From: a virus
DNA length: 11,597 nucleotides
Strand: one strand, 5' to 3'
Virus genome (UHGV): UHGV-0331195
Positions 1-11,597 of this stretch are shown in pieces. The notes under the pieces were generated by a model. It was not told the origin of the DNA and did not search any database. It saw only the letters and a list, made by a program, of their open reading frames with translations. Each line of letters begins with the position of its first letter. Position 1 is the first letter of the stretch. Position numbers and translations under genes: made by a program.

Positions 1-20
1 CAGTTAGCGAAATATCTTAC

Positions 21-48
21 TTGCAATCGGTGTGGAAAACGGTAGTAT
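21..48 (+). promoter_or_regulatory. Candidate sigma70 promoter for the tRNA gene: TTGCAA (21-26), 16-nt spacer, TAGTAT (43-48)
   Basis: Seen in sequence: -35/-10-like hexamers at correct spacing, ending about 14 nt before the tRNA 5' end. Not tested. Confidence 0.3.
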
Positions 49-62
49 TAGCAGCCACGAGT

Positions 63-139
63 CGGCACGTAGCGCAGCCTGGTAGCGCACCGTCATGGGG
101 TGTCGGGGGTCGGAGGTTCAAATCCTCTCGTGCCGACCA
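63..139 (+). tRNA. proL: tRNA-Pro, anticodon GGG
   Basis: 77-nt cloverleaf: acceptor stem CGGCACG/CGTGCCG, D-arm GCGC-AGCCTGGTA-GCGC, anticodon loop ATGGGGT (GGG), T-arm GGAGG-TTCAAAT-CCTCT, 3' CCA encoded. Matches my recollection of enterobacterial proL. Confidence 0.9.
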
Positions 140-177
140 AATCGCCCACCGGAAAGCACCGGATAAGACAGGGATAA

Positions 178-208
178 CCCGCTAATCACTTGATTGGCGG
201 GTTTTTTT
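178..208 (+). terminator. Rho-independent terminator after the tRNA (stem CCCGCTAATCA / TGATTGGCGGG, then T7)
   Basis: GC-rich hairpin followed by TTTTTTT at 202-208. Probably island-supplied sequence that restores tRNA 3' processing/termination at attL. Confidence 0.6.
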
Positions 209-220
209 ATGTTTTTTAGT

Positions 221-240
221 CACCGAACATCACCGGATTT
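221..240 (+). promoter_or_regulatory. Conserved element CACCG-N5-CACCGGATT, copy A, about 110 bp upstream of int
   Basis: CACCGAACATCACCGGATTT here and CACCGGAATACACCGGATTC at 2051-2070 share identical half-site spacing. Candidate activator (AlpA?) binding site. Confidence 0.35.
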
Positions 241-261
241 ATAAGCTATCAGCCGGATTTT

Positions 262-316
262 TTAGTTATACGTTTAGTTATACGGGCTGGCGTATAACTA
301 AAGCCGTATAACTAAA
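262..316. repeat. Integrase arm-type binding sites: TTAGTTATACG x2 direct (262-272, 274-284) and CGTATAACTAA x2 inverted (291-301, 306-316)
   Basis: Four copies of an 11-mer in a direct/inverted arrangement between the att core and int; the same 11-mer recurs twice at 11291-11313 near the other end. Confidence 0.6.
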
Positions 317-347
317 ACCCTGTTTTTTCGTGTGGAATCATAGACAT

Positions 348-1589
348 ATGGCGAGAAAAACACACCCATTAACCACAGTGCAGATCAAAGCAGCCAGACC
401 AGCGCAAAAGGAGTACACCCTGCAGGACGGCGGAGGGCTTTTTCTCCTGGTCAAACCGTCTGGATCAAAACTCTGGAGATTTTCCTACTACCGACCATCG
501 GACAAAAAAAGAATATTGCTGAGTTTTGGATCGCTTGAAGATGTTTCCCTGGCTGATGCCAGAAAACGCCGTAGCGAGTACAGGACGTTAATCAGTGCCG
601 GAACTGACCCGCAGGACCACGAGAGGCAAAAAAGAGAGACAGAGGCCCGAAGACAAGGGAACACGTTCGAAAATGTGGCGGCGGCATGGTACCAGGTGAA
701 AATCAGCCAGAATCTGGCCCCCAACACGATTAAAGACATCTGGCGTTCGCTGGATAAATATGTATTCCCGTTCATCGGCAACACGCCAATAGATACCCTC
801 ACCGCCCGAAGGTTCGTTGAAGTGCTTACCCCCATCAAGGAGCGCGGCAACCTGGAAACACTCAAGCGGGTTTTACAGCGCGTTAATGAGGTAATGGATT
901 ACGCCGCCAACAGTGGGCTGATTGATGCCAATCCGGCTATGAATGTGCGTAAGGCGTTTCCCTCACCTGTAAAAAAACATATGCCAACAATCCGCCCCGA
1001 ACAGCTGCCGGAGCTTATGCAGGCTTTATCAGTATCGGCAACAGAACGGCAGACCAGATTACTGATTGAATGGCAGTTACTGACCGTAACCCGTCCCGCC
1101 GAAGCGTCATCAACGCGGTGGGATGAAATCAACCTGGACGCGAAGCAATGGACGATACCTGCCGGACGCATGAAGATGCGCAGGGATCACGTTATCCCGC
1201 TTTCCGGTCAGGCTATGGCGGTGCTGGAGGCCATGAAACCAATCAGCCACCACCGCAATTACGTTTTCCCAAGTCTGAAAGACCCACAGCAGCCGATGAA
1301 CAGCCAGACAGCTAACGCAGCATTGCGGCGTATGGGATTCGCTGGCGTGCTGGTGTCTCATGGATTACGCGCCATATTCAGCACAGCAGCGAACGAGGAA
1401 GGATTCGAGCCGGACGTAATAGAGGCGGCACTTGCCCACGTCGACACCAACGAAGTTAGACGGGCATACAACCGGAGCAACTATATAGAAAAACGCATCG
1501 TGCTGATGCGCTGGTGGGGCGAATTTGTCGAGGCTGCGGCGACGGGCGTAACCCTCGCCAGTGGTAAAAGGGGTATCCGAGCCGTGTAG
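348..1589 (+). CDS. int: Tyrosine-type site-specific integrase, P4/CP4-57 family
   Basis: ORF 330-1589; start chosen at ATG 348 (MARKTHPLT...). N-terminus (PLTTVQIKAARP...YTLQDGGGLFLLVKPSGSKLWRFSYY) matches the arm-binding domain signature I recall for P4-type integrases; C-terminus has HGLR and RAYNRSNY catalytic-region motifs. Adjacent to a tRNA. Confidence 0.85.
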   Translation: MARKTHPLTTVQIKAARPAQKEYTLQDGGGLFLLVKPSGSKLWRFSYYRPSDKKRILLSFGSLEDVSLADARKRRSEYRTLISAGTDPQDHERQKRETEARRQGNTFENVAAAWYQVKISQNLAPNTIKDIWRSLDKYVFPFIGNTPIDTLTARRFVEVLTPIKERGNLETLKRVLQRVNEVMDYAANSGLIDANPAMNVRKAFPSPVKKHMPTIRPEQLPELMQALSVSATERQTRLLIEWQLLTVTRPAEASSTRWDEINLDAKQWTIPAGRMKMRRDHVIPLSGQAMAVLEAMKPISHHRNYVFPSLKDPQQPMNSQTANAALRRMGFAGVLVSHGLRAIFSTAANEEGFEPDVIEAALAHVDTNEVRRAYNRSNYIEKRIVLMRWWGEFVEAAATGVTLASGKRGIRAV

Positions 1590-1666
1590 CTGTACAGAAA
1601 ACCAGTAAAAACTACGAAAACCATGTAAAACCGTCGTATAATTGCATCAAATTTAACGACAAGGCC

Positions 1667-1918
1667 GTGAAACATGAAACCGTTAAGATGCAAAAAAATA
1701 TCAGATGCAATTGCGACGGGCTGCAACTGGCCCTGATGGTTCAGCATGAATTTTGGTCAACCTACGATCCGGAGGACAGAACGACGGCCCCATCAAAAAA
1801 ACAGGTAGTAGATTTTCTGGTATCCCGTGGCGCTTCCAGAAATCTGGCGGTAAGTATTGATAAGGTCGTACGTCCGGCATCTATGAAGATCGGAGGCAGG
1901 CCCAAAAAATGGCGGTAA
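1667..1918 (+). CDS. Small hypothetical protein, possible HTH DNA-binding protein or excisionase-like RDF
   Basis: 83-aa ORF (GTG 1667 or ATG 1688), C-terminal ...SIDKVVRPASMKIGGRPKKWR resembles the end of AlpA/Xis-type HTH proteins. Weak RBS; followed by a terminator. Position between int and alpA. Confidence 0.35.
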   Translation: MKHETVKMQKNIRCNCDGLQLALMVQHEFWSTYDPEDRTTAPSKKQVVDFLVSRGASRNLAVSIDKVVRPASMKIGGRPKKWR

Positions 1919-1924
1919 CAATCC

Positions 1925-1951
1925 TGGAAGCGGCAGAAATGCCGCTTTTTT
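1925..1951 (+). terminator. Rho-independent terminator (GCGGCAgaaaTGCCGC then T-run)
   Basis: Hairpin plus TTTTTTT immediately after the 83-aa ORF. Confidence 0.6.
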
Positions 1952-1981
1952 TATAATTCCATTTCAAATCATCAATATAAA

Positions 1982-2070
1982 AAACGGTGTATACCGTTTA
2001 AAAACGGTGGGAACTGTTTTTACCCATATCCGATGATTTACCGTATTTGTCACCGGAATACACCGGATTC
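1982..2070 (+). promoter_or_regulatory. alpA upstream control region: palindrome AAACGG-TGTATA-CCGTTT (1982-1999) and CACCG-N5-CACCGGATT copy B (2051-2070)
   Basis: Perfect 6-bp inverted arms with 6-bp spacer; the second element ends 15 bp before the alpA ATG and matches the copy upstream of int. Confidence 0.4.
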
Positions 2071-2085
2071 ACAAGGTAAATCACG

Positions 2086-2292
2086 ATGGAAGCAATCAGA
2101 AAAATTATCTTTCGCCAGGAAGTAAAAAAAATTATCCACATCAAGGCAGACAGCACGCTGCAAAGCATGATCAACGCCGGAGAATTTCCGCAGGGTTTTC
2201 GCGTTGGTTTACGCCGTCGCGGATGGTATGAGGATGATGTGTTGTCCTGGCAGAAAGAACGCGAAGAGGAAGCACGCGGAACGGCTGCTTAA
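2086..2292 (+). CDS. alpA: AlpA-family phage transcriptional regulator
   Basis: 68 aa; ...RQEVKKIIHIKADSTLQSMINAGEFPQGFRVGLRRRGWYEDDVLSW fits the AlpA pattern as I recall it (R..EV...ST.....G.FP...G.R..W.E..V..W). Same orientation as int, as in Gram-negative PICIs. Confidence 0.7.
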   Translation: MEAIRKIIFRQEVKKIIHIKADSTLQSMINAGEFPQGFRVGLRRRGWYEDDVLSWQKEREEEARGTAA

Positions 2293-2318
2293 CGGGTATC
2301 ACAGATATGACAAACACG

Positions 2319-2352
2319 AAAAAAGCGGCCCCGATATGGAGCCGCCTTTCTG
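2319..2352. terminator. Bidirectional hairpin GCGGC-ccccgatatgga-GCCGC; terminator for the minus-strand RHH transcript (T-run on minus strand)
   Basis: On the minus strand the hairpin is followed by TTTTTT; on the plus strand it follows alpA with only a weak T-tract. Confidence 0.5.
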
Positions 2353-2440
2353 AACAATTAACCCGCTGCGCCTTATGTGTATGTGATCCCAAACATAAGC
2401 ACGGGGATGATAGCCGCTATCAGGCTGGTGGGCAATGCAA

Positions 2441-2629
2441 TCAGTCTGGTTCAGTTCGTTGCCATACCTGCAATGAGCGCTTTTCCCTGTACTCTTTAAG
2501 GAATTGCTCAAGGGCAAAAGCACATGGTGCGAATCTTTCTGATTCATGCTCTATCTTTCTGCGCCGTCTTTTCCGTGCCGGTGATAATGTTTTGGTCAAT
2601 TCTTTATCGGTCATTGTGTTGTCCTGCAT
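2441..2629 (-). CDS. Small basic hypothetical protein, second gene of the RHH transcript
   Basis: 62-aa ORF (or 57 aa from ATG 2614) between the RHH gene and the minus-strand terminator; contains RKRRRRK. No clear RBS. Confidence 0.3.
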   Translation of the reverse strand: MQDNTMTDKELTKTLSPARKRRRRKIEHESERFAPCAFALEQFLKEYREKRSLQVWQRTEPD

Positions 2630-2671
2630 AGCAATGCGCCGTAATACCTCACACCACGGCGCTGATAGTGA

Positions 2672-2851
2672 TTATTCTGATTCTTTGGCCTTGCGGCGCT
2701 GGCGGCGTTTGATCTCGCCTTCAAGTGCCGAAACGATAAATTGCCCTGTACTTTCGCCATCTTCCTTTAAATTTTCTACAGCATCAGCTATTGCGTGTGG
2801 TACTCGAGCCTCAAGCTTTTTGGATTTTGCATTAACTGCTTTTGTTGCCAT
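2672..2851 (-). CDS. Ribbon-helix-helix (Arc/CopG/MetJ-type) DNA-binding protein, candidate island repressor
   Basis: 59 aa from ATG 2851 with RBS GAGGAAA 7 nt upstream on the minus strand. MATKAVNAKSKKLEARVPHAIADAVENLKEDGESTGQFIVSALEGEI matches the RHH beta-strand plus two-helix pattern. Divergent from the replication operon, with operator repeats between. Confidence 0.65.
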   Translation of the reverse strand: MATKAVNAKSKKLEARVPHAIADAVENLKEDGESTGQFIVSALEGEIKRRQRRKAKESE

Positions 2852-2872
2852 ATCTGATTTCCTCGTTATTAG

Positions 2873-2952
2873 GTGGCTGACAGTATACACACAAGAAAAC
2901 GGAAAAACACTATTGACGTGGCTGACACCCGTTACTAATATAGTGGCTGACA
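2873..2952. promoter_or_regulatory. Divergent promoter/operator: three direct GTGGCTGACA repeats (2873-2882, 2918-2927, 2943-2952) over a rightward promoter TTGACG (2913-2918), 17 nt, TAATAT (2936-2941)
   Basis: Three exact 10-mers within 80 bp; the middle copy lies in the spacer of a near-consensus sigma70 promoter facing the Icd-like/primase operon. A possible leftward promoter (TTGTGT...TAATAA on the minus strand) overlaps the first repeat. Confidence 0.55.
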
Positions 2953-3045
2953 CCTTTATTAAGGTAATCGATGAAAAGACAAAGCCCCGCAAGTGTCGTT
3001 ACCACTCGCAGGGCTTCTAACCAACAACGTAAACTAGGAGCCGTT

Positions 3046-3603
3046 ATGGTTGCTGTAAATCATATACCACACCTTGTACACACACAAACGGCCTTTGTGT
3101 GGCGTTTTCTGGCCCTGAATATCGGAGAAAAAAACCGCTTGATCGCCACCAGCAAAAATGGCTATGATTCCCGCGCACCTCATAAAACGGGTGTCGGGAT
3201 TAGCCTCCTGAAAACAACTGAAGCGCACAGCACGCGCCCCGCGTGTTTTTTTGTGCCGCATAGTCACACCTTATCAATGGTGGGCTGTACGGGGGCGGAG
3301 CAATCCGCGCCGGTTTCTTCAGTGTCCGGTAAGGCTAACCCTGTACAGTCCGCCACCAGCGAAATTAGCCTTTTGCGTGGCGGTTATCTTAACCACACTG
3401 AGGAGGCTGCCAACATGGCTACTATCCCTACCCTTGTACATTCTCAAACCGCATTTATCTGGCGCTTTATCATCTTTGGCGCGTCAGAATCTCAAATCAT
3501 CCACGTAACCGCCTGGACGGAACGCGAAGCGCGTAGCCGTTGCCCGTCCGGTTGTATTGCGGTATTCGCCGCCCGTATTCGTCAGGGGGTGTGCCATGCC
3601 TGA
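3046..3603 (+). CDS. Icd-like (host cell-division inhibitor family) ORF with in-frame tandem duplication; start uncertain (2971, 3046 or 3415)
   Basis: Single frame 2971-3603 with no stop. AGGAG RBS before ATG 3046. N-terminal motif LVHTQTAFVWRF recurs as LVHSQTAFIWRF at the second copy; degenerate TEAHSTRPAC versus TEREARSRCP. Confidence 0.4.
   Translation: MVAVNHIPHLVHTQTAFVWRFLALNIGEKNRLIATSKNGYDSRAPHKTGVGISLLKTTEAHSTRPACFFVPHSHTLSMVGCTGAEQSAPVSSVSGKANPVQSATSEISLLRGGYLNHTEEAANMATIPTLVHSQTAFIWRFIIFGASESQIIHVTAWTEREARSRCPSGCIAVFAARIRQGVCHA
3415..3603 (+). CDS. Icd-like protein, second and better conserved copy, 62 aa
   Basis: Strong SD GAGGAGG (3400-3406) before ATG 3415. MATIPTLVHSQTAFIWRFIIFGAS...TEREARSRCP...FAARIRQGVCHA fits my recollection of Icd-like small proteins in P4-like/PICI elements. 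Confidence 0.5.
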   Translation: MATIPTLVHSQTAFIWRFIIFGASESQIIHVTAWTEREARSRCPSGCIAVFAARIRQGVCHA

Positions 3604-3916
3604 TATGTCAAATTACCAGTACCTGATTAATCCGCATTTTAACTGTGAGCATGATATTGCTAAAAAAGTTTATTCCGCTGCGGATGGGGCTACTGACAAT
3701 ATATCAATGGGTGTTGCGTCAATTGGTAGCCTGATGTGGCATGCGTCAGAAAATAAGGAATATGACGAAAATACCATGCGCATTGATATGGGTAATATCG
3801 GTTTGTTACTGGCAATGCTTGGACATTTTGATATTTCGTTACGGTGCACCATTGAAAATGCCACAGATGCATTAAATGCTATAAAGAAAGCGAATACTGA
3901 TTCAAATCGGGGATAA
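3596..3916 (+). CDS. Hypothetical protein, 106 aa
   Basis: ATG 3596 overlaps the preceding stop (ATGCCTGA), RBS AGGGGG 6 nt upstream. No family recognised. Confidence 0.5.
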   Translation: MPDMSNYQYLINPHFNCEHDIAKKVYSAADGATDNISMGVASIGSLMWHASENKEYDENTMRIDMGNIGLLLAMLGHFDISLRCTIENATDALNAIKKANTDSNRG

Positions 3917-3922
3917 ATAATC

Positions 3923-4222
3923 ATGAGAACGTATTTATCTGGCTTTACTGCCAGCGGCCCCGCTCGGCCTGAAATCCGCCCCGGAGATATTTTCAGAGAT
4001 AACTACGGTGGCGTTGTTGAGATTAAAGGCGTGGCAGAACGGCGCATTACCTACCGCCGTGAAGGCTACGAATATGATTGCGTGATGCCTGTTTATCAGT
4101 TCCGGCGTGATTTTTCTCTGGTACAGGCAGCGCCCCGCAGTAAACCAACCAGCAGGGAGAAAGCACGCGCCAATATTCAGGAAATAAGAAAGATGTTGAA
4201 TGTATTCAGGGGTAAAAAATGA
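3923..4222 (+). CDS. Small protein, possible DUF4222 family
   Basis: 99 aa; PGDIFRDNYGGVVEIKGVAERRITYRREGYEYDC resembles the DUF4222 pattern I recall from P4-like prophages. Stop overlaps the primase start (ATGA). Confidence 0.45.
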   Translation: MRTYLSGFTASGPARPEIRPGDIFRDNYGGVVEIKGVAERRITYRREGYEYDCVMPVYQFRRDFSLVQAAPRSKPTSREKARANIQEIRKMLNVFRGKK

Positions 4223-5967
4223 AACTGGCACCGAACGTAAAAAAACAGCCACGCGGAATAAAACACAAAGACACAGAGGTAATTATCTTTGCGGGTAGTG
4301 ATGCCTGGTCACACGCGGAACAATGGCAGGAGCAGGATGGCCCCGCATCCGGCGATAATGTGCCGCCTGTGTGGCTTGGGCCAAATCAGCTTGCCGAACT
4401 TGATGCACTGAAAATTGTTCCGGATGGAAAAAAACGCGTAAGGCTGTACCAGGCCGGAGAACTGGATTTGGTGGAGACCAAAAAGATTGGTCAGAAGCTG
4501 GCGGCGGCAGATATTCAGGACGCAAATTTTTACCCCGAAGGAATGCACGTCCAGAAGTGTGAAAACTGGCGGCGCTATCTGAATGCTGAGCGTGAAAATA
4601 TTGCCGCAGGGCTTACCATGCCGGAGCAGAAAAATACGCAACTGGCACAAATGGCAGACAGTGAGCGCGCGCAGCTGCTTGCCGAGCGCTTTGATGGCGT
4701 TTGTGTACATCCGGAAAGTGAAATCGTTCACGTATGGCGCGGCGGGGTATGGTGTCCGATCAGCACAATGGAGCTGAGCCGCGAAATGGTGGCGATCTAT
4801 TCAGAGCACAGGGCCACTTTCAGCAAACGCGTGATCAATAACGCCGTTGAAGCGTTAAAAGTTATTGCCGAACCAATGGGGGAGCCGTCCGGCGATTTGC
4901 TGCCGTTCGCCAATGGTGCGCTTGACCTGAAAACGGGGGAATTTTCCCCGCACACGCCGGAGAACTGGATCACCACGCACAACGGCATTGAGTACACGCC
5001 ACCAGCACCTGGGGAGAACATCCGCGATAACGCGCCAAACTTTCATAAATGGCTTGATCACGCAGCCGGAAAAGACCAGCGCAAGATGATGCGTATATGT
5101 GCCGCGCTGTACATGATTATGGCGAACCGGTACGACTGGCAGATGTTTATTGAGGCCACCGGAGACGGCGGGAGCGGTAAAAGTACATTCACACACATCG
5201 CCAGCCTTCTGGCAGGGAAACAGAACACGGTAAGCGCTGAAATGACATCGCTTGATGATGCTGGTGGACGTGCGCAGGTTGTCGGGAGTCGTCTTATCGT
5301 CCTGGCTGACCAGACGAAATATACAGGCGAAGGAACGGGCATCAAGAAAATCACGGGCGGCGACCCCGTGGAAATTAACCCGAAATACGAAAAGCGTTTC
5401 ACGGCTGTAATCAGGGCGGTGGTGCTGGCGACCAACAATAACCCGATGATATTCACCGAACGGGCCGGAGGTGTGGCACGTCGTCGCGTGATTTTCCGCT
5501 TCGACAATATCGTCAGTGAGGCCGAAAAAGACAGGGAGCTACCGGAAAAGATTGCGGCTGAAATCCCTGTCATTATCCGCCGATTGCTGGCGAACTTTAC
5601 CGACCCTGAGAAGGCACGGGCTTTACTACTGGAACAGCGTGACGGTGATGAAGCACTGGCAATAAAGCAACAGACGGATCCGGTTATTGAGTTTTGCCAG
5701 TTCCTGAATTTTCTGGAGGAAGCGCGCGGCCTGATGATGGGTGGCGGTGGCGATTCAGTGAAGTACACGACCAGAAACAGCCTTTACCGCGTCTATCTGG
5801 CGTTTATGGCATACGCAGGCAGGAGCAAACCGCTAAACGTAAATGACTTTGGCAAGGCTATGAAGCCAGCCGCGAAAGTTTACGGACATGAATATATTAC
5901 GCGGAAAGTTAAGGGAGTAACGCAGACTAACGCAATAACAACAGACGATTGCGACGCGTTTTTATAA
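4219..5967 (+). CDS. Replication protein: P4-alpha-like primase / SF3 helicase
   Basis: 582 aa; Walker A GDGGSGKST (aa 315-323, nt 5161-5187) and Walker B-like RLIVLAD, consistent with the phage/plasmid primase P4-family C-terminal domain. Followed by an iteron origin. Confidence 0.75.
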   Translation: MKLAPNVKKQPRGIKHKDTEVIIFAGSDAWSHAEQWQEQDGPASGDNVPPVWLGPNQLAELDALKIVPDGKKRVRLYQAGELDLVETKKIGQKLAAADIQDANFYPEGMHVQKCENWRRYLNAERENIAAGLTMPEQKNTQLAQMADSERAQLLAERFDGVCVHPESEIVHVWRGGVWCPISTMELSREMVAIYSEHRATFSKRVINNAVEALKVIAEPMGEPSGDLLPFANGALDLKTGEFSPHTPENWITTHNGIEYTPPAPGENIRDNAPNFHKWLDHAAGKDQRKMMRICAALYMIMANRYDWQMFIEATGDGGSGKSTFTHIASLLAGKQNTVSAEMTSLDDAGGRAQVVGSRLIVLADQTKYTGEGTGIKKITGGDPVEINPKYEKRFTAVIRAVVLATNNNPMIFTERAGGVARRRVIFRFDNIVSEAEKDRELPEKIAAEIPVIIRRLLANFTDPEKARALLLEQRDGDEALAIKQQTDPVIEFCQFLNFLEEARGLMMGGGGDSVKYTTRNSLYRVYLAFMAYAGRSKPLNVNDFGKAMKPAAKVYGHEYITRKVKGVTQTNAITTDDCDAFL

Positions 5968-5982
5968 TTTTTTGCAATGGCT

Positions 5983-6207
5983 GTCTACCCTGTCTACCTG
6001 AGTAAAGAAAAATACATTTAATTCAGTATATTAACTTAGGTAGACAGCCTTTTTTCACTGTCTACCTACTATCTACCCTCTCTACCTGATTTTACCTGAA
6101 TCAGACAGGGAGGTAGATACGGGGTAGATAGTGGATAAAAGCACTCTACCCCGCTGAAAGCCGCGCCATTACTGGCATGAGAGCCAGTAAGGTAGATAAG
6201 GTAGACA
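5983..6207. repeat. Origin of replication: iteron cluster with at least 12 copies of (T)GTCTACC / GGTAGA(C/T)A in both orientations around an AT-rich spacer (6001-6038)
   Basis: Direct copies at 5983-5990, 5991-5998, 6059-6066, 6071-6077, 6082-6088, 6144-6150; inverted copies at 6039-6046, 6113-6120, 6123-6130, 6191-6198, 6200-6207. Resembles P4 ori/crr octamer iterons bound by alpha. Confidence 0.7.
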
Positions 6208-6255
6208 AGGGGAGGCACAACTCAAAACTTTTTAAACGAGGGGGTAAAAATAAAA

Positions 6256-6519
6256 ATGCGCACATCAGGAAAACTTAATAATCAGAAGAAGCAGCATAAC
6301 CGCGCCATTGACCTTACAGAGCACTGGCTGAGAGTGGCGATAAAAATCATCGACCGCAACACGGGGGAAGGATACGCGAAAGCACATCCCGAACTGATAA
6401 GCGCATTCATGACCACGGCGGCGGCAAACTTTGCCACGCTGACAGAACGGGAGATTGCCGAAGCGGAACAGGTAACAACCATCAACGTAAAAACCGGAGA
6501 GTCAGGCGATGATACATGA
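6256..6519 (+). CDS. Hypothetical protein, 87 aa
   Basis: ORF with GAGGGGG upstream; stop overlaps the next gene's start. Confidence 0.45.
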   Translation: MRTSGKLNNQKKQHNRAIDLTEHWLRVAIKIIDRNTGEGYAKAHPELISAFMTTAAANFATLTEREIAEAEQVTTINVKTGESGDDT

Positions 6520-6781
6520 CCGCATAGCGGAGGAACTCGAGGCGAAAGGATTTTACCGGAGGGCGGCGGCGCGATGGGGTGAAGTCATGCAGCTGGTGGA
6601 GACAGACAAGGAACGGCATCAGGTTACGATGCGACGGCTGGAATGTTCCAGGAAGGCACAGAGGCCACCGGAGCCGCCGGATAACTTCGGAGACCTGAGA
6701 AAGGCAGTCGATCGCACTTATGCTGAAATGGGTATAGATGGTGTAAGCGATGAAATATGGCGTAATTACCCAGGCAGCTAA
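6509..6781 (+). CDS. PerC-like transcriptional regulator (tentative)
   Basis: 90 aa; N-terminus IAEELEAKGFYRRAAARWGEVM resembles the PerC-family signature as I recall it. Translationally coupled to the upstream ORF. Confidence 0.45.
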   Translation: MIHDRIAEELEAKGFYRRAAARWGEVMQLVETDKERHQVTMRRLECSRKAQRPPEPPDNFGDLRKAVDRTYAEMGIDGVSDEIWRNYPGS

Positions 6782-6787
6782 TCAACA

Positions 6788-6809
6788 GCCGGAGTAATCC
6801 GGCTTTTTT
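6788..6809 (+). terminator. Rho-independent terminator GCCGGAGtaaTCCGGC then T6
   Basis: Hairpin plus TTTTTT. Nearly identical to the terminator at 9064-9086. Confidence 0.65.
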
Positions 6810-6821
6810 GTACCCAAAAAA

Positions 6822-6858
6822 AGCCCGATAAGTACAGGAGGCATCTTATCGGGCTTTT
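6822..6858. terminator. Second, bidirectional terminator (AGCCCGATAAG...CTTATCGGGCT flanked by A-run and T-run)
   Basis: 11-bp stem hairpin with A7 upstream and T4 downstream; insulates the early/replication region from the head operon. Confidence 0.6.
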
Positions 6859-6891
6859 GCATATGAGGTTTTTTTTGGTGCACTGACACAC

Positions 6892-6990
6892 ATGATCGGG
6901 ATCATCATTTCATAATTTGCAACACAACTCAACATCATTGCATAAAATGCAATCATGATTATAATCATAACTGGATGAACATCCAGTTAT
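6892..6990 (+). promoter_or_regulatory. Head-operon control region: consensus -10 TATAAT (6959-6964) with TTGCAT -35 candidate (6938-6943), plus four palindromes
   Basis: Palindromes ATGATC-GG-GATCAT (6892-6905), TTGCAT-AAA-ATGCAA (6938-6952), ATGATTATAATCAT (6955-6968), ATAACTGGATG-AA-CATCCAGTTAT (6967-6990); the last sits at the expected transcription start. Confidence 0.5.
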
Positions 6991-7021
6991 GATTTTTTAA
7001 GTCAAAGAGGAATTTCTTACT

Positions 7022-7228
7022 ATGGCTGAAGAGAAAAAAGGCGGTGTTTCGGTGTACATAAGCCCCGACATCGTGAAGGCGCTCAAGGAACGCCACCAGC
7101 AGAACGTAAAAGCAGGCATTGCGGCAGGACTTGATCCGCTGGCGATGGTTGAGCCGTCAACAGGCTGGCAGGTACGCGCCTATTTACGCGCGGCGCTGGG
7201 TATGAATCAGGTTCACGGGGGTGAATAA
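7022..7228 (+). CDS. Small hypothetical protein, first gene of head operon
   Basis: 68 aa, RBS AAGAGGAA, stop overlaps the capsid gene start (TAATG). No similarity to lambda gpW, which has the same length, that I can see. Confidence 0.5.
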   Translation: MAEEKKGGVSVYISPDIVKALKERHQQNVKAGIAAGLDPLAMVEPSTGWQVRAYLRAALGMNQVHGGE

Positions 7229-8283
7229 TGACAGTAAAAGCAATAGCACTTAACACTAACCAGCTTTTTGCGTACCTGAATCGCGAGGATATTGCGGAAT
7301 TTAAATTCAGTCCGCTGTTTACCGCGCTGTTTTTCCCGAACGTGGCGACATTCAACACACAGGACATCATGTTAGATAACCTGGATATTGAAGAAGTCAC
7401 TATGTCGGCGTTTTGTTCGCCTATGGTGGGTAGCCAGGTTCAGCGCGATAAAGGGTACGAAACAAGCATTATTCGCCCTGGCTACACGAAGCCAAAACAC
7501 GAAATCGATCCATTAAAAACAATAATGCGCATGGCTGGAGAAGATCCAGCACAGCTTAACGACCCTACCTACCGCCGTATGCGCCTGATTACTGGCAACA
7601 TGCGCCGCCAGATAAACGCCATTAAAGCGCGCGTGGAATGGCTGGCGGTAAATGCGGTAACGACCGGAAAAAACATCATTGAGGGCGAAGGCATAGAGCG
7701 CTATGAAATCGACTGGAAGATACCGGAAAAAAACATCATAGAGCAGGCCGACGGTAAAAAATGGTCAGAGCAGGACAAAGACATACACGACCCAATCTAT
7801 GACATTGAGCTATACGCAGATCAGGCAGGTTGCCCCGCAAACGTCATGATTATGGGCGTTGATGTATGGCGCATGTTACGCAGCTTTAAAAAATTCCGTG
7901 AACTGTACGATCTCTCCCGTGGTTCAGAATCCGCCGCAGAGCTGGCATGTAAAAACCTGGGCGAAGTGGTGAGCTTTAAAGGCTATCTTGGTGATCTGGC
8001 CCTTATCGTCTATTCCGGCAAATACACTGACAGCGACGGCACAGAAAAATATTTCCTTGAGCCTGATTTGCTGGTCCTGGGCAACACCAACAATAAAGGG
8101 CTGGTGGCCTATGGTGCGATTATGGAACAGGAAGCGGTAAGAACGGGCGCAACGCAAAACATGTTTTACCCGAAAAACTGGATTGAGGACGGCGATCCGG
8201 CGATTGAGTACGTGCAGACGCACAGCGCACCGCAGCCGGTTCCGGCAGATATTCGCAAATTTGTTACCGTCAAAATTGGTTAA
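7228..8283 (+). CDS. Major capsid protein, phage lambda gpE family (divergent)
   Basis: 351 aa. Shares with recalled lambda gpE: FKF(S/D)PLF...LFF, (T/R)PGY(V/T)KPKHE, EDP..L.DP.YRR.R.I..NMR, WS..DK...DP..DIE.YA, RSFK, RGS.S, LG..VS(F/Y)KG..GD.A.(I/V)VYSG.Y, LVLGNT...GL..YG, .YPKNW...GDPA.E, SAP. Estimated 35-45% identity. Confidence 0.85.
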   Translation: MTVKAIALNTNQLFAYLNREDIAEFKFSPLFTALFFPNVATFNTQDIMLDNLDIEEVTMSAFCSPMVGSQVQRDKGYETSIIRPGYTKPKHEIDPLKTIMRMAGEDPAQLNDPTYRRMRLITGNMRRQINAIKARVEWLAVNAVTTGKNIIEGEGIERYEIDWKIPEKNIIEQADGKKWSEQDKDIHDPIYDIELYADQAGCPANVMIMGVDVWRMLRSFKKFRELYDLSRGSESAAELACKNLGEVVSFKGYLGDLALIVYSGKYTDSDGTEKYFLEPDLLVLGNTNNKGLVAYGAIMEQEAVRTGATQNMFYPKNWIEDGDPAIEYVQTHSAPQPVPADIRKFVTVKIG

Positions 8284-8295
8284 CGGGGGGATTCT

Positions 8296-8631
8296 ATGGA
8301 CACTCCATACATTGAGTTATTTGCAGGCAGTCAGCAGGTATCCACGACGCTGGTACATTTTGCCGCTGATGCTGGCGTTATTCAGGAATTTACCCCGCTG
8401 ATGCTGGCGGACAATGGCGAGTTTAAGCCGTGGGATGGTCAGGAATCTGGCAAGGCTGTTTATCTGACTTCGTACCCCGTGGACACGTCAAAGCAGAAAT
8501 CAGCACAGTGTTACAAGACGGGGATATTTAATATCGCCGCCGTAAACTGGCCTGAGAGCGCCGACACTGACGCGAAAAAATGCGCCGCCTTTGCGGGTTC
8601 TGGCGTATCCGTTCAGCCGCTGGCGCGATAA
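8296..8631 (+). CDS. Head decoration protein, lambda gpD family (divergent)
   Basis: 111 aa; TPLMLADNGEFKPWDG...YKTGIFN...VNWPESADTDAKKCAAFAG...SV parallels recalled gpD (TPLMLD...WDG...YKSGTF...VLWPEA..DETKKRTAFAG...SI). Gene order E then D is the reverse of lambda. Confidence 0.7.
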   Translation: MDTPYIELFAGSQQVSTTLVHFAADAGVIQEFTPLMLADNGEFKPWDGQESGKAVYLTSYPVDTSKQKSAQCYKTGIFNIAAVNWPESADTDAKKCAAFAGSGVSVQPLAR

Positions 8632-8643
8632 GCAGGGGAAACG

Positions 8644-9057
8644 ATGGCAACGAATGAAAGCATCATGGCGCTACCGCTGGCGAGTAAATTTAAAGCAGAA
8701 GCGCGGGCAATGGCTGACAGAGGTTTATCAACCTACGAGGCCGTATATCAACTCAACAAACTGGAAGAACAGGACAAGCCGCGCGCTGATGCGATTATGG
8801 CGCTTCATGAACATAACGACTATCAGCCGCTGTTACGTGCAATGGCAAACGTGCCATGTATTAGCGTCGATAATGCTCGTGAAATCCTGAACATGACCAT
8901 AGAGCAGGAGCGCCCAAAGGTTGCACCAGAGCTTACCGCAGCCTTTGAAAACTTTATGGACATGCACAGCCCGCAAGCCGTATCAGCTGGCATGGCGTAC
9001 GATGGCAGAAACCAGGGCGATGACGGCGACATCGATCGCATACTGAAAACCATCTGA
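8644..9057 (+). CDS. Hypothetical head-module protein, 137 aa, acidic C-terminus
   Basis: RBS GGGGA 5 nt upstream. No convincing similarity to lambda FI/FII/W from memory. Confidence 0.5.
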   Translation: MATNESIMALPLASKFKAEARAMADRGLSTYEAVYQLNKLEEQDKPRADAIMALHEHNDYQPLLRAMANVPCISVDNAREILNMTIEQERPKVAPELTAAFENFMDMHSPQAVSAGMAYDGRNQGDDGDIDRILKTI

Positions 9058-9063
9058 GACAAG

Positions 9064-9086
9064 GCCGGAGAAATCCGGCTTTTTTT
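9064..9086 (+). terminator. Rho-independent terminator GCCGGAGaaaTCCGGC then T7, immediately before cosQ
   Basis: Hairpin plus TTTTTTT; 22 of 23 nt identical to the terminator at 6788-6809. Confidence 0.65.
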
Positions 9087-9088
9087 AC

Positions 9089-9262
9089 GGGTCCTTTCCG
9101 GCATATGGACCCGTTACGGGGCGGCGACCTCGCGGTTTTTCGCTATTTATGAGCCTTTTCAGGGGGGTGGTGGTGGTTTTGTTGTTTGATCTATCTTTAT
9201 GAATGAAAAGGGAAAGATGCAAGCAATACACCAACCTGAAGCAGTAATTAAGTTGGTGTATT
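9089..9262 (+). other. cos site 1 (lambda-type): cosQ-like GGGTCCTTTCCGG (9089-9101), cosN 12-nt cohesive-end sequence GGGCGGCGACCT (9119-9130), divergent cosB region with hairpin AATACACCAAC/GTTGGTGTATT (9225-9262)
   Basis: CGTTACG|GGGCGGCGACCTCGCGG-TTTTCGCTATTTATGA matches my memory of the lambda right-end/left-end junction for about 35 nt, then diverges with no CGTTTCC-type R elements. Sits directly upstream of the Nu1-like gene, as in lambda. Confidence 0.75.
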
Positions 9263-9263
9263 A

Positions 9264-9806
9264 ATGAAATCTCATCTGATGAACAAAAAAAACATGGCGA
9301 AAAGCTGCCGTGTAAGTGCGACAGCGTTCGACAAGTGGGGAGTAACTCCCGTTGAGCGTAAAGGCCGTGAGGCGTTTTATGATGTTGCCAGCGTGATAGA
9401 AAATAGGGTTAACAATGCAATTAGCCAGCTTATAAACGACAAAGGCGAGATTGACGATGATGAACTTTTACGAGTCAGGATCAGATTACTGACAGCACAG
9501 GCAGAGGCGCAGGAACTTAAAAACGATCGCGATCGCGGTGACGTGATTGATACTGAGTTTTGCCTGTACGCGCTTTCAAAGCTGGCGAGTCAGATTTCAT
9601 CAATCATGGACAGCCTCCCGCTTACTATGCAAAGGAGCTTCCCACAGATTACCCCCGCCATGCTGGATAGGCTTAAAAGGGAAGTGGTTAAAGCCTGTAA
9701 TGCCAGTGCCAGAGTTGCCGACAACCTCCCACAGATACTGGCTGATTACTTGAAAGAAACAACCGGAAACGTACCGGAAAAGTTGCTACAGAAGAAAGGC
9801 GAGTAA
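9264..9806 (+). CDS. Terminase small subunit, lambda gpNu1 family; start uncertain (9264, 9279 or 9294)
   Basis: C-terminal two-thirds LLTAQAEAQELKNDRDRGDVIDTEFCLYALSKLASQISSIMDSLPLTMQRSFPQI...LDRLKREVVKACN closely parallels recalled Nu1 (LTRAQADAQELKNARDSAEVVETAFCTFVLSRIAGEIASILDGLPLSVQRRFPEL...FLKRDIIKAMN). N-terminal DNA-binding region is much more divergent. Confidence 0.8.
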   Translation: MKSHLMNKKNMAKSCRVSATAFDKWGVTPVERKGREAFYDVASVIENRVNNAISQLINDKGEIDDDELLRVRIRLLTAQAEAQELKNDRDRGDVIDTEFCLYALSKLASQISSIMDSLPLTMQRSFPQITPAMLDRLKREVVKACNASARVADNLPQILADYLKETTGNVPEKLLQKKGE

Positions 9807-9824
9807 CAGACGCGCAATTATTGA

Positions 9825-10030
9825 ACAAAACTGAGAAACGACATGAAAGCGTCATAAATCGCCATTTTAGATGATTACCGTGTCGTTTCTTTTTATTGTG
9901 TATCTATTTAAAAACAAATAGTTATGTTCGAGAAGTACCGACATGCTTTTTCCAGAAAAATTTTCATAAACAGATAAAAACCGCGAGGTCGCCGCCCCGT
10001 AACGGGCCATAATTCCAGGAAGGACCCGAC
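9825..10030 (-). other. cos site 2, inverted: cosQ-like (9998-10030), cosN GGGCGGCGACCT on minus strand (9986-9997), lambda-like cosB with R-type elements GAAACGACA (9835-9843) / TGTCGTTTC (9882-9890)
   Basis: The reverse complement of 9825-10030 aligns with the recalled lambda left end over about 170 nt (cosN, TTTATGAAAATTTT, CTTCT.G.ACATAACT..TGTTTTTA..TA, AAAAAGAAACGACA, TGTCGTTTC). 31 nt around cosN are identical to cos site 1 in inverted orientation. cosB abuts the terS stop tail-to-tail. Confidence 0.7.
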
Positions 10031-10061
10031 GACACCAGACTATCAGAACGATGGGGGCACA

Positions 10062-10343
10062 ATGACAGAAGCCGAAATACTGGGATTAATCCGCCGCGTT
10101 GCCGGAATCAGCCAGCAGGTTGACGAACAGGCCACGCAGCCGGACAGCGTGACCGCTGAAAATTATGCGCGTGTTGTTGCGGAGGTGATGCGCCGTGATG
10201 GTATAGAACTTAATGGCGTGGATATGCGCAACATACGAACCAGAGTTCTTGAGTTGCTGGCCTACCGTCGCCGCGTGGAGATGTATCGGGAGAAGGAGAA
10301 AATAACGTACCACTGGAAGAAGCCGGAGCGGTTGCGGCGGTAA
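10062..10343 (+). CDS. Hypothetical protein, 93 aa
   Basis: ORF with GGGGG 5 nt upstream of ATG; Arg-rich C-terminus. No family recognised. Confidence 0.45.
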   Translation: MTEAEILGLIRRVAGISQQVDEQATQPDSVTAENYARVVAEVMRRDGIELNGVDMRNIRTRVLELLAYRRRVEMYREKEKITYHWKKPERLRR

Positions 10344-10903
10344 CTGGTTGATATTCCCGACGGACCAAAAATGGGTGGCTACATCCCTCGCTTCTGAGGA
10401 CTGTTAACAAGCTGCCTGAAAGACAGTCACAAACTACGAAATTTTCGCAGTTTAATTAATGATCAGCTTAATCGCTAACCCGCTGATATTTTCGGAAACC
10501 TCAATTTGAGGAAGTCGGCGCGGTAACTCGCTGAACTTTAAGCAAAGCGCAAAATTGCGCTTGCTGAATAATCATTATGATTACGCAGATGATTAAGGAA
10601 TGACCGAAGGCGGAAATTCGCCTGTGGTTAATGGGGGAGTTGCAGATCTGCAACTCGACCATGAAACTACGGAAACTACCCGTAGTTTGGGTAGTAAGAG
10701 TAACACCCAGATTTTGGGGCTTACTCGTGATACCCAAATTTGGGGTATCGGTGGCAACCATAACGACTTTCGTTACGGTTGATGCTTTTACCCCATTGGT
10801 GGAGGCTGGGCGGCCTGCTGTGGGCTTTTCCACCATTGGTGGAAAGGTGCAGATCTGGATCATCATTACGGTGATCAAGGGTATGTAAAACCCACCAGCC
10901 TGA

Positions 10904-11146
10904 TTAACAGTTAACCGGAAAAAAAATCCGGCATGGGGGGGAGTGGTTAGCCACGAACAACGAATAAGCTGGACACCGCGCCCCCTCTCACGCAGAGAAA
11001 AAATTACCGTTTCGTAGTAGTTAACATGTTAACTGCCTGATGAAGCGTTGTTGTTGATTTTTTCTTTATGATTCATCTGGTTGCGTGCAAAAAATGTTAA
11101 CTACCTTTTTGGTAAAAATGTTAACAGGGCAGCGGTTAACATTAAC
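10904..11146. repeat. Cluster of GTTAAC-containing palindromes and direct repeats: TTAACAGTTAAC (10904-10915), AGTTAACATGTTAACT (11019-11034), AAAATGTTAAC x2 (11091-11102, 11114-11125), GGTTAA-CA-TTAACC (11133-11146)
   Basis: Seen in sequence. No ORF of convincing quality in this region. Candidate protein-binding array, function unknown. Confidence 0.4.
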
Positions 11147-11290
11147 CAGGCGTAAATCCCGATATGGTGATCCCCATATCGGGGAACATCCACCAGCTTA
11201 AAAACGAATGAGCGAAAAAAATCCAGGTAGAATTATGGAAGTCGCTAGGGCAATCGCCGTTTAAATTGTGTATTTTTTCAGCAAATTATT

Positions 11291-11313
11291 TTAGTTATAC
11301 GTTTGGTTATACG
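11291..11313. repeat. Integrase arm-type sites near attR: TTAGTTATACG (11291-11301) and TTGGTTATACG (11303-11313)
   Basis: Same 11-mer as at 262-284, about 60 bp from the attR core. Confidence 0.55.
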
Positions 11314-11374
11314 GTTTAAAAGTTGAATCGATAATATTGATTAAAATCATACTGTTACACGCTCAATTAAACTA

Positions 11375-11395
11375 CTCTCGTGGACCAAAAATCCC
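11375..11395 (+). other. attR core: degenerate direct repeat of the tRNA-Pro 3' end
   Basis: CTCTCGTGGACCAAAAATCCC versus tRNA 3' CTCTCGTGCCGACCAAATCGCCC (125-147); 8 + 7 contiguous identical bases. Confidence 0.5.
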
Positions 11396-11402
11396 AAGAA
11401 AA

Positions 11403-11428
11403 AACCAACCCTTACGGTTGGTTTTTTT
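11403..11428 (+). terminator. Rho-independent terminator AACCAACC-cttac-GGTTGGTT then T7; probably the original chromosomal tRNA terminator
   Basis: Hairpin plus T-run immediately right of attR. Confidence 0.55.
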
Positions 11429-11597
11429 ATATCTGCAATTAATTCGATAAACAGAGCGTGACACATCACAGCCTGTTTATTTTCTGTTATCAGAACGTCC
11501 AGACCACACCCGCCTGAGTATTCCACGGCGATTCTACCCCTGCGCCATTGCCATAGCTGACTGACAAATGACCGCTTAACGTCGGGGTAAACGATGA

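Follow-up and report, generated by a model that had tools for sequence, protein, structure and literature searches.

An island at the 3' end of proL in Escherichia coli with the organisation of a Gram-negative phage-inducible chromosomal island

What has settled at the end of the proline transfer RNA (tRNA) gene proL in UHGV virus genome UHGV-0331195, and why do its two ends not match? The DNA analysed here, 11,597 nucleotides (nt) long and hereafter called the window, very probably carries a classical Gram-negative phage-inducible chromosomal island (PICI) of the EcCIATCC25922/EcCIED1a.1 group, inserted at the proL 3' end. A first-pass annotation had seen an island integrated at tRNA-Pro(GGG) between 125 and 11395, and the site itself bears out this placement: ARAGORN calls a single tRNA in the window, tRNA-Pro(GGG) at 63-139 on the plus strand, and in K-12 MG1655 the locus is empty, with lapC/yejM, proL and yejO in succession and nothing inserted. 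Comparison with an empty proL locus, which that annotation had put forward as a check, returns the boundaries it predicted and a net insertion of 11,248 bp at the proL 3' end; window positions 1-141 are 100% identical to K-12 and positions 11390-11597 differ from it by 1 base (99.5% identity). The start at 125 was exact, and the end at 11395 runs 6 nt into the chromosomal flank. The site is built as follows.

63..139, plus strand: proL, tRNA-Pro(GGG), intact, its last bases within the attL identity block (ARAGORN, Rfam tRNA, K-12 annotation)
125..141: attL identity block CTCTCGTGCCGACCAAA; island DNA departs from K-12 at 142
176..210, plus strand: island-supplied terminator-like hairpin and T-run behind the rebuilt tRNA gene
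11375..11389: attR, CTCTCGTG then GACCAAA, without the CC of the tRNA acceptor stem
11405..11428, plus strand: native proL terminator hairpin, CCAACC-N5-GGTTGG-T7, now beyond the far side of the island (read from sequence)
11491..11597, minus strand: 3' end of chromosomal yejO

The attB junction reads ...CTCTCGTGCCGACCAAAAATCCC..., the attL junction ...CTCTCGTGCCGACCAAA|TCGCCC... (125-141) and the attR junction ...AAACTACTCTCGTG--GACCAAA|AATCCC... (11375-11389). The repeat is imperfect, as had been noticed, and its 15 matching positions are unbroken in attR, as first described, but not in attL, where blocks of 8 and 7 are separated by a 2-nt gap. The native proL terminator has been moved 11 kb away, behind attR, and a new, island-supplied hairpin stands behind the proL copy on the attL side.

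Of 5426 complete E. coli genomes, 4956 have an uninterrupted proL junction, 146 a window-type attR junction (at least 80% of a 121-nt query covered) and 66 the exact 2-nt-deletion junction at 99% identity or more; only five cover at least 80% of the window. The whole window is 99.7% identical to DNA of E. coli NCTC9112, where it lies between yejM with tRNA-Pro on one side and yejO with narP on the other; the two differ in length by about 11 bp, mostly between the tRNA and the integrase gene (139-348), in or near the arm repeats described below. Two other occupants of proL were sampled among the roughly 470 genomes without an uninterrupted junction, and neither is a full prophage. At the far end of the island in strain 4224 of sequence type ST131, a long intact tRNA fragment is kept from the anticodon region onwards, which points to a different crossover position; Z1323CEC0002 carries at proL a further, distinct PICI-like element that encodes a ClpP-capsid fusion and a DUF1441 protein.

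How is the island recognised by its own recombinase? The integrase gene lies at one end, next to attL, and short repeats are found inside both ends.

263..314: P' arm-type sites, TAGTTATACG in four copies (2 direct, 2 inverted)
348..1589, plus strand: P4-type tyrosine integrase with Arm-DNA-bind_3, Phage_int_M and Phage_integrase domains
11292..11313: P arm-type sites, T(A/G)GTTATACG in two copies

The arm-type repeats claimed earlier for both ends (4 + 2 copies of TAGTTATACG) hold up statistically, with 6 matches in the window against 0.47 expected and none of 200 shuffles reaching 6; they are likely the binding sites of the arm-binding domain of the integrase. The 2018 catalogue lists TTTGTAGTTATACGTTTGTAGTTATACGG as the "att site core" of this PICI group (PMC6092414 Table S1). 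This published core (TTTGTAGTTATACGTTTGTAGTTATACGG / TTTGTAGTTATACG...) is the integrase arm repeat, found some 120 bp in from attL and some 60 bp in from attR, and not the recombination junction; the true junction of the group is the proL 3' end. Tommasini, Mageeney and Williams remapped the reference PICIs to tRNA genes in 2023, placing this group at tRNA-Pro with the block CTCTCGTG (PMC10111431).

Beyond the integrase, the genes that define a PICI are in place. An AlpA-type gene lies downstream of int, att repeats mark a specific site, and Pri-Rep is followed by an origin in which two iteron sets surround an AT-rich spacer, as in Gram-negative PICIs.

2086..2292, plus strand: AlpA-like regulator/excisionase (PHROG excisionase 2.5e-6; 97% identical to the EcCIATCC25922 homologue)
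4219..5967, plus strand: Pri-Rep primase/helicase, 582 amino acids (aa), with D5_N, DUF5906 and Pox_D5 domains (90% identical to EcCICFT073 Pri-Rep)
5981..6207: replication origin, its 11 iterons with TCTACC core forming two opposed sets

TCTACC occurs 13 times in the whole window against 2.8 expected (13 was reached in 0 of 200 shuffles), with 11 copies within 5981-6207, and the layout agrees with that published for PICI origins (PMC6092414 Fig. 2). Profiles and repeats recover the PICI-like early genes proposed at the outset: integrase, AlpA-like, Icd-like, Pri-Rep and iteron origin. The four-zone layout described by Tommasini et al. (integration, Bro/immunity RNA, replication, late; PMC10111431) is also present in the window, and transcription is mostly rightward, with 15 of the 17 called open reading frames (ORFs) and both RNA genes on the plus strand. 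At 11.25 kb, the island fits the Gram-negative PICI range of about 8-15 kb, and does so without tail, lysis, portal or large-terminase genes.

Which PICI is it closest to? Table S1 of the 2018 study places EcCIATCC25922, EcCIED1a.1, EcCI11128, EcCI11368.1, SdCI1012 and SbCISb277 at "yejM-luxR" or "yejM-aidA" (PMC6092414), and by its sequence the island reads as a mosaic member of the EcCIATCC25922/EcCIED1a.1 group. With EcCIATCC25922 it shares the att site, the arm repeats, the cos1-terS-cos2 layout, a size of about 11.3 kb and int, orf76, alpA and terS at 97-100% identity (alpA 97%, terS 98%); the RefSeq integrase accession WP_000101718.1 is common to NCTC9112 and ATCC 25922. An alignment with EcCIATCC25922 takes in 78% of the window at 94.4% identity, and the two differ (i), in the early region 2700-3900, where the window has a different icd allele as well as RNAs of isrK and C4 type; (ii), in ssb, in place of which the window has perC; and (iii), over some 700 bp at the right end, including a cos3-like segment of the window. 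EcCICFT073, the E. coli PICI that has been studied by experiment (Fillol-Salom 2018, 2019), has the same gene order and close homologues (Pri-Rep 90%, capsid 95%, decoration 97%, orf137 93%, PerC 83% identity) but another integrase and att site (ycfD-phoQ).

The late block is made up as follows.

7022..7228, plus strand: 68-aa ORF, conserved upstream of the capsid gene
7228..8283, plus strand: lambda gpE-family major capsid homologue (95% identical to EcCICFT073 c1499, 43% to lambda E)
8296..8631, plus strand: lambda gpD-family head decoration homologue (37% identical to lambda D)
8644..9057, plus strand: 137-aa ORF with a weak hit to head-protease profiles, in their C-terminal part (PHROG 53, 7e-10)
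9086..9263, plus strand: cos1, with a cosQ-like segment, exact lambda cosN (9119-9130) and non-lambda cosB; adjoins terS upstream
9264..9806, plus strand: full-length Nu1-type small terminase (TerS), 180 aa (Pfam Phage_Nu1 3.2e-23)
9830..10030, minus strand: cos2, inverted cosQ/cosN copy (cosN 9986-9997) with lambda-like R-site motifs in cosB
10062..10343, plus strand: 93-aa conserved ORF, PHROG 1561

A late module of lambda type had been proposed, and profile searches do find gpE-like, gpD-like and Nu1-like homologues in it; portal, protease, large-terminase, tail and lysis families gave no match in profile searches of the island (Pfam, PHROGs). Identities of 43%, 37% and 36% to lambda E, D and Nu1 indicate that the late proteins are lambda-family proteins and not recent captures from lambda itself. 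The capsid homologue is also about 95% identical to PDB 3BQW, which was deposited as a putative prophage capsid protein and is presumably the c1499 protein of EcCICFT073. The product of the 137-aa ORF is possibly scaffold-like, to judge from its profile match; BLASTP found no match between it and lambda C or Nu3.

The exact lambda cosN, GGGCGGCGACCT, occurs at 9119-9130 on the plus strand and at 9986-9997 on the minus strand. An inverted repeat of cosQ/cosN, about 65 bp at 88% identity (9088-9152 and 9964-10028), brackets the cosB1-terS cassette. Two inverted lambda cosN sites are likewise present in EcCICFT073, where the arrangement is cos1-rppA-cos2, with the 144-aa RppA instead of the 180-aa Nu1-type TerS of the window and a different cosB in cos1. 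Homology between the two islands stops exactly between the cos sites, at about 9160-9950, where EcCICFT073 carries rppA; cosB together with the specificity protein therefore behaves like an exchangeable cassette. Rpp-type PICIs are said, in work of 2019 by Fillol-Salom, to encode an Rpp homologue that retargets the helper TerS. In the window, a Nu1-type TerS fills the position of such a homologue: almost the whole of lambda Nu1 aligns with it at 36% identity, the gpA-binding C-terminal region included. The possibility that it is a long Rpp was considered and rejected, since BLASTP found no similarity to RppA (E = 3.4) and no RppC chain stands among its PDB matches. We infer that the TerS subgroup would recruit the helper large terminase directly, via its own TerS, and not by retargeting the helper TerS.

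Capsid-forming PICIs such as EcCIEDL933 have an int-alpA-rep backbone of the same PICI type together with the full set of portal, protease, connectors, HNH, TerS and large terminase (TerL), whereas the window holds only capsid, decoration and TerS homologues, its own portal, protease, connectors, HNH and TerL being absent. The cos Staphylococcus aureus pathogenicity islands of SaPIbov5 type likewise carry helper cos sites and a capsid-protein homologue; they are Gram-positive, unrelated in sequence and under Stl repressor control.

Why, then, is attR damaged? In the window, CC is gone directly after CTCTCGTG and attL is intact. We took attR sequences from eleven E. coli loci. After the constant ...AAACTACTCTCGTG, JSMCR1 continues with an intact CCGACCA (and has an intact 17-bp repeat), S19-651 with CGACCA, the window, NCTC9112, ATCC 25922, S1-CAM-02-A and AST198 with GACCA, and STEC2018-607 with CCA, as does TW11681, whose island arm differs; Nissle 1917, like ATCC 25922, has a 2-nt deletion identical to that of the window. 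The different element of Z1323CEC0002 has GCCA, which fits no simple deletion. As we interpret the published alignment, Sb227 keeps CA, ED1a keeps A and SdCI1012 has a larger deletion (PMC10111431), so that deletions of 0, 1, 2 and 4 nt in the relatives are extended by published ones of 5, 6 or more. Tommasini et al. (2023) had described such small deletions in the attR tRNA fragment, all from one acceptor-stem position (PMC10111431).

One island-arm haplotype is seen with four different attR junctions, and the GACCA junction with three island-arm and three host-flank haplotypes; the deletion therefore travels with neither island nor host. It appears to arise at each integration event, anchored at a fixed base, and the imperfect attR of the window would then be the 2-nt case of an anchored series and not age-related decay. 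Williams is reported to have treated damage to attR tRNA fragments as well, in 2002. Of the two explanations first offered for the imperfect repeat, an old insertion finds no support in flanks near-identical to K-12 and intact core ORFs; a core shorter than assumed fares better, the comparison supporting a short conserved core for the family, the 8-bp CTCTCGTG, followed by variable-length deletions from the same base, and it is these fixed-start deletions that make up the imperfection itself. A model with which we had started, crossover within GACCAAA using an attP natively lacking CC, was rejected: relatives with the same island arm keep GACCA, CCA, CGACCA or A, JSMCR1 has the intact repeat, and the empty-site scars described next need a crossover to the left of the deletion.

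In three genomes (STEC384, O111:H11 strain 8D and NADC1036), an empty proL bears the 4-nt deletion: yejM, a tRNA-Pro ending ...CTCTCGTGCCAAAAATCCC and yejO follow each other without an island (proL at locus positions 1479-1552). The flank in NADC1036 is that of STEC2018-607, which bears an island with the same 4-nt deletion. In the simplest reading, attL and attR recombined on the left side of the deletion, so that an island was lost and the damaged tRNA remained; integration into an already damaged proL, the reverse order, may account for these sites instead. No 6-nt scar was found in an empty site, the 1-nt and 5-nt variants not having been searched. Tommasini et al. (2023) proposed that a satellite which leaves a damaged tRNA on exit exerts an addiction-like effect (PMC10111431).

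The remaining genes lie between int and Pri-Rep and just beyond the origin.

1688..1918, plus strand: 76-aa ORF, 100% identical to an EcCIATCC25922 ORF
2441..2629, minus strand: 62-aa ORF, of which 57 aa match a hypothetical protein of EcCICFT073 at 100% identity
2672..2851, minus strand: YlcI/YnfO family protein (NCBIfam 1.1e-16; PHROG 949)
3139-3168: promoter-like site upstream of the isrK-like RNA
3175..3251, plus strand: isrK-like leader RNA (P4 seqA-type) with a terminator at its 3' end (Rfam 61.8 bits, gathering 50)
3273..3360, plus strand: C4/CI-type antisense immunity RNA (Rfam 75.4 bits, gathering 45)
3415..3603, plus strand: Icd-like host cell division inhibitor (NCBIfam 5.7e-16)
3596..3916, plus strand: 106-aa ORF, PHROG 15327
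3923..4222, plus strand: DUF4222 protein
6256..6519, plus strand: 87-aa ORF, 98% identical to its EcCICFT073 homologue
6509..6781, plus strand: PerC-family transcriptional activator, an accessory gene (Pfam 7.8e-45)

The 76-aa ORF has no family match in Pfam, PHROGs or NCBIfam, which leaves the helix-turn-helix label given to 1667-1918 unsupported; the ribbon-helix-helix label of the YlcI/YnfO gene is unsupported as well. The promoter-like site, isrK, C4 and the Icd-like ribosome-binding site stand in a row (3139-3420), to all appearances a P1/P4-type RNA immunity layout, and the C4 loop could pair with the Icd-like ribosome-binding region at about 3393-3405 (some 12 bp including G-U pairs, aligned by eye). 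Profiles of isrK and C4 match several PICIs (Tommasini et al., PMC10111431), and both RNAs are absent from EcCICFT073 and EcCIATCC25922 at the Rfam gathering threshold. In RefSeq, "ash family" and "icd-like" pseudogenes overlie the isrK and C4 RNA genes.

Several points weigh against the PICI reading. The AlpA of the island reaches 17.9 bits in Pfam, where the gathering score is 21; in EcCICFT073, neither the capsid nor the decoration homologue gave a phenotype (PMC6092414), and the literature searched yielded no experimental work on a Nu1-type TerS encoded by a PICI. To these are added three that would suit a PICI relic, fixed in the chromosome by the attR deletion and by decay of the early region, and now only carrying perC or interference functions: the CC deletion, which could impair excision, adjoins or sits inside the probable strand-exchange region; no empty site with a 2-nt scar occurs among the 5426 genomes; and in the near-identical copy of NCTC9112, RefSeq annotates three fragments within 2307-3400 as pseudogenes. 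These fragments overlap the isrK and C4 genes, however, and may be annotation artefacts. Moreover, int, alpA, pri-rep, terS and the capsid gene are intact, as are the iterons and both cosN sites, the 2-nt junction is found with three arm and three flank haplotypes, as expected from repeated recent insertions and not from one frozen event, and relatives with a 4-nt deletion did leave scars. We consider a relic unlikely on this evidence.

A defective lambdoid prophage, reduced by deletion to int, part of its replication genes and a small number of head genes, would explain the lambda-family capsid, decoration and Nu1 homologues and the exact lambda cosN sites. The late genes of the island are only 36-43% identical to those of lambda and in a non-lambda order, the integrase is of P4 type, AlpA is present, a D5/P4-type primase and an iteron origin stand in place of a lambda O/P-type module, and the same 11-kb architecture is kept at several att sites, with clean boundaries against the empty site; this makes a prophage remnant very improbable. 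A P4-like satellite dependent on a P2-type helper can be dismissed with similar assurance, for although the tRNA-targeting integrase has the P4-family domain architecture and the island also shares with P4 a primase of the D5/P4 family, a gene of AlpA/Vis type and, together with a seqA-like leader, RNA immunity of the C4/CI type, no profile search found a homologue of Sid, Psu, Delta or Epsilon, cos is of lambda and not of P2 type (lambda cosN being found), the late genes are lambda-family, and Fillol-Salom 2018 sets these elements apart from P4 (PMC6092414).

As a classical PICI of the EcCIATCC25922/EcCIED1a.1 group, the island would be inserted at the proL 3' end by its P4-type integrase. 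Along with a terminator of its own, the attP would supply a new 3' end for the tRNA, so that proL stays intact at attL, and the bacterial tRNA fragment would be displaced to attR, minus the 2 nt (CC) right after CTCTCGTG; the excised circle is predicted to carry the attP junction ...AAACTACTCTCGTGCCGACCAAATCGCCC.... We infer the life cycle, helper dependence included, from EcCICFT073: a lambdoid helper phage would turn on alpA, AlpA would activate the rightward operon, Int would excise the island and Pri-Rep would replicate it from the iteron origin. The Nu1-type TerS of the island would then bind the island-specific cosB of cos1 and recruit the lambda-type large terminase of the helper, which would cut the lambda-identical cosN and package the island into helper-made particles.

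Could the island also be packaged by a second kind of helper? Towards the right end lies a further candidate signal.

10936..11145, plus strand: cos3-like segment (about 80% identity with the spacer between the HNH gene and terS in Stx-type lambdoid phages)

Within it lie a 36-nt block of full identity and ATGTTAAC in five copies. Counterparts are found in phage BP-4795, in E. coli H105 and in many O157 prophages, and a total of 93 phage records match it. HK97-like phages have their cos in the HNH-terS spacer, and by its homology to that spacer, 10936-11145 is a probable third cos region. Compared with the HK97 cos junction itself, it shows no convincing homology, only a G-run then a C-rich motif at comparable spacing; in EcCICFT073 and EcCIATCC25922 the segment is absent. 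The island of S19-651 is without the lambda-type late block (window 6810-10049) and lambda cosN and has kept the cos3-like segment, which suggests that the segment is a working packaging signal. The S19-651 island (locus 91-6517) has the same island arm with the 1-nt attR deletion, and adjoins a tRNA-Pro-like flank of different sequence, beside e14-like tail genes. It is possible, if on balance doubtful, that this PICI variant uses two helper types, one through its own TerS, private cosB and lambda cosN and the other through an HNH-phage cos; the SaPIbov5-type islands provide a precedent for helpers with two different packaging systems. If so, a lambda-type large terminase would be captured directly, without Rpp, and either helper class could package the island.

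The identification adds little in itself, the family having been catalogued in 2018 (PMC6092414) and remapped to tRNA-Pro in 2023 (PMC10111431), and the attR damage being published. The natural 4-nt-deleted empty proL sites, on the other hand, offer genomic evidence for the published idea of a damaged tRNA with an addiction-like effect. The exchange of TerS for Rpp between inverted cos sites, along with the possible HNH-phage cos, leads to testable hypotheses on helper choice, and the helper choice of E. coli PICIs bears both on the spread of perC-type regulators and on engineered PICI delivery vehicles.

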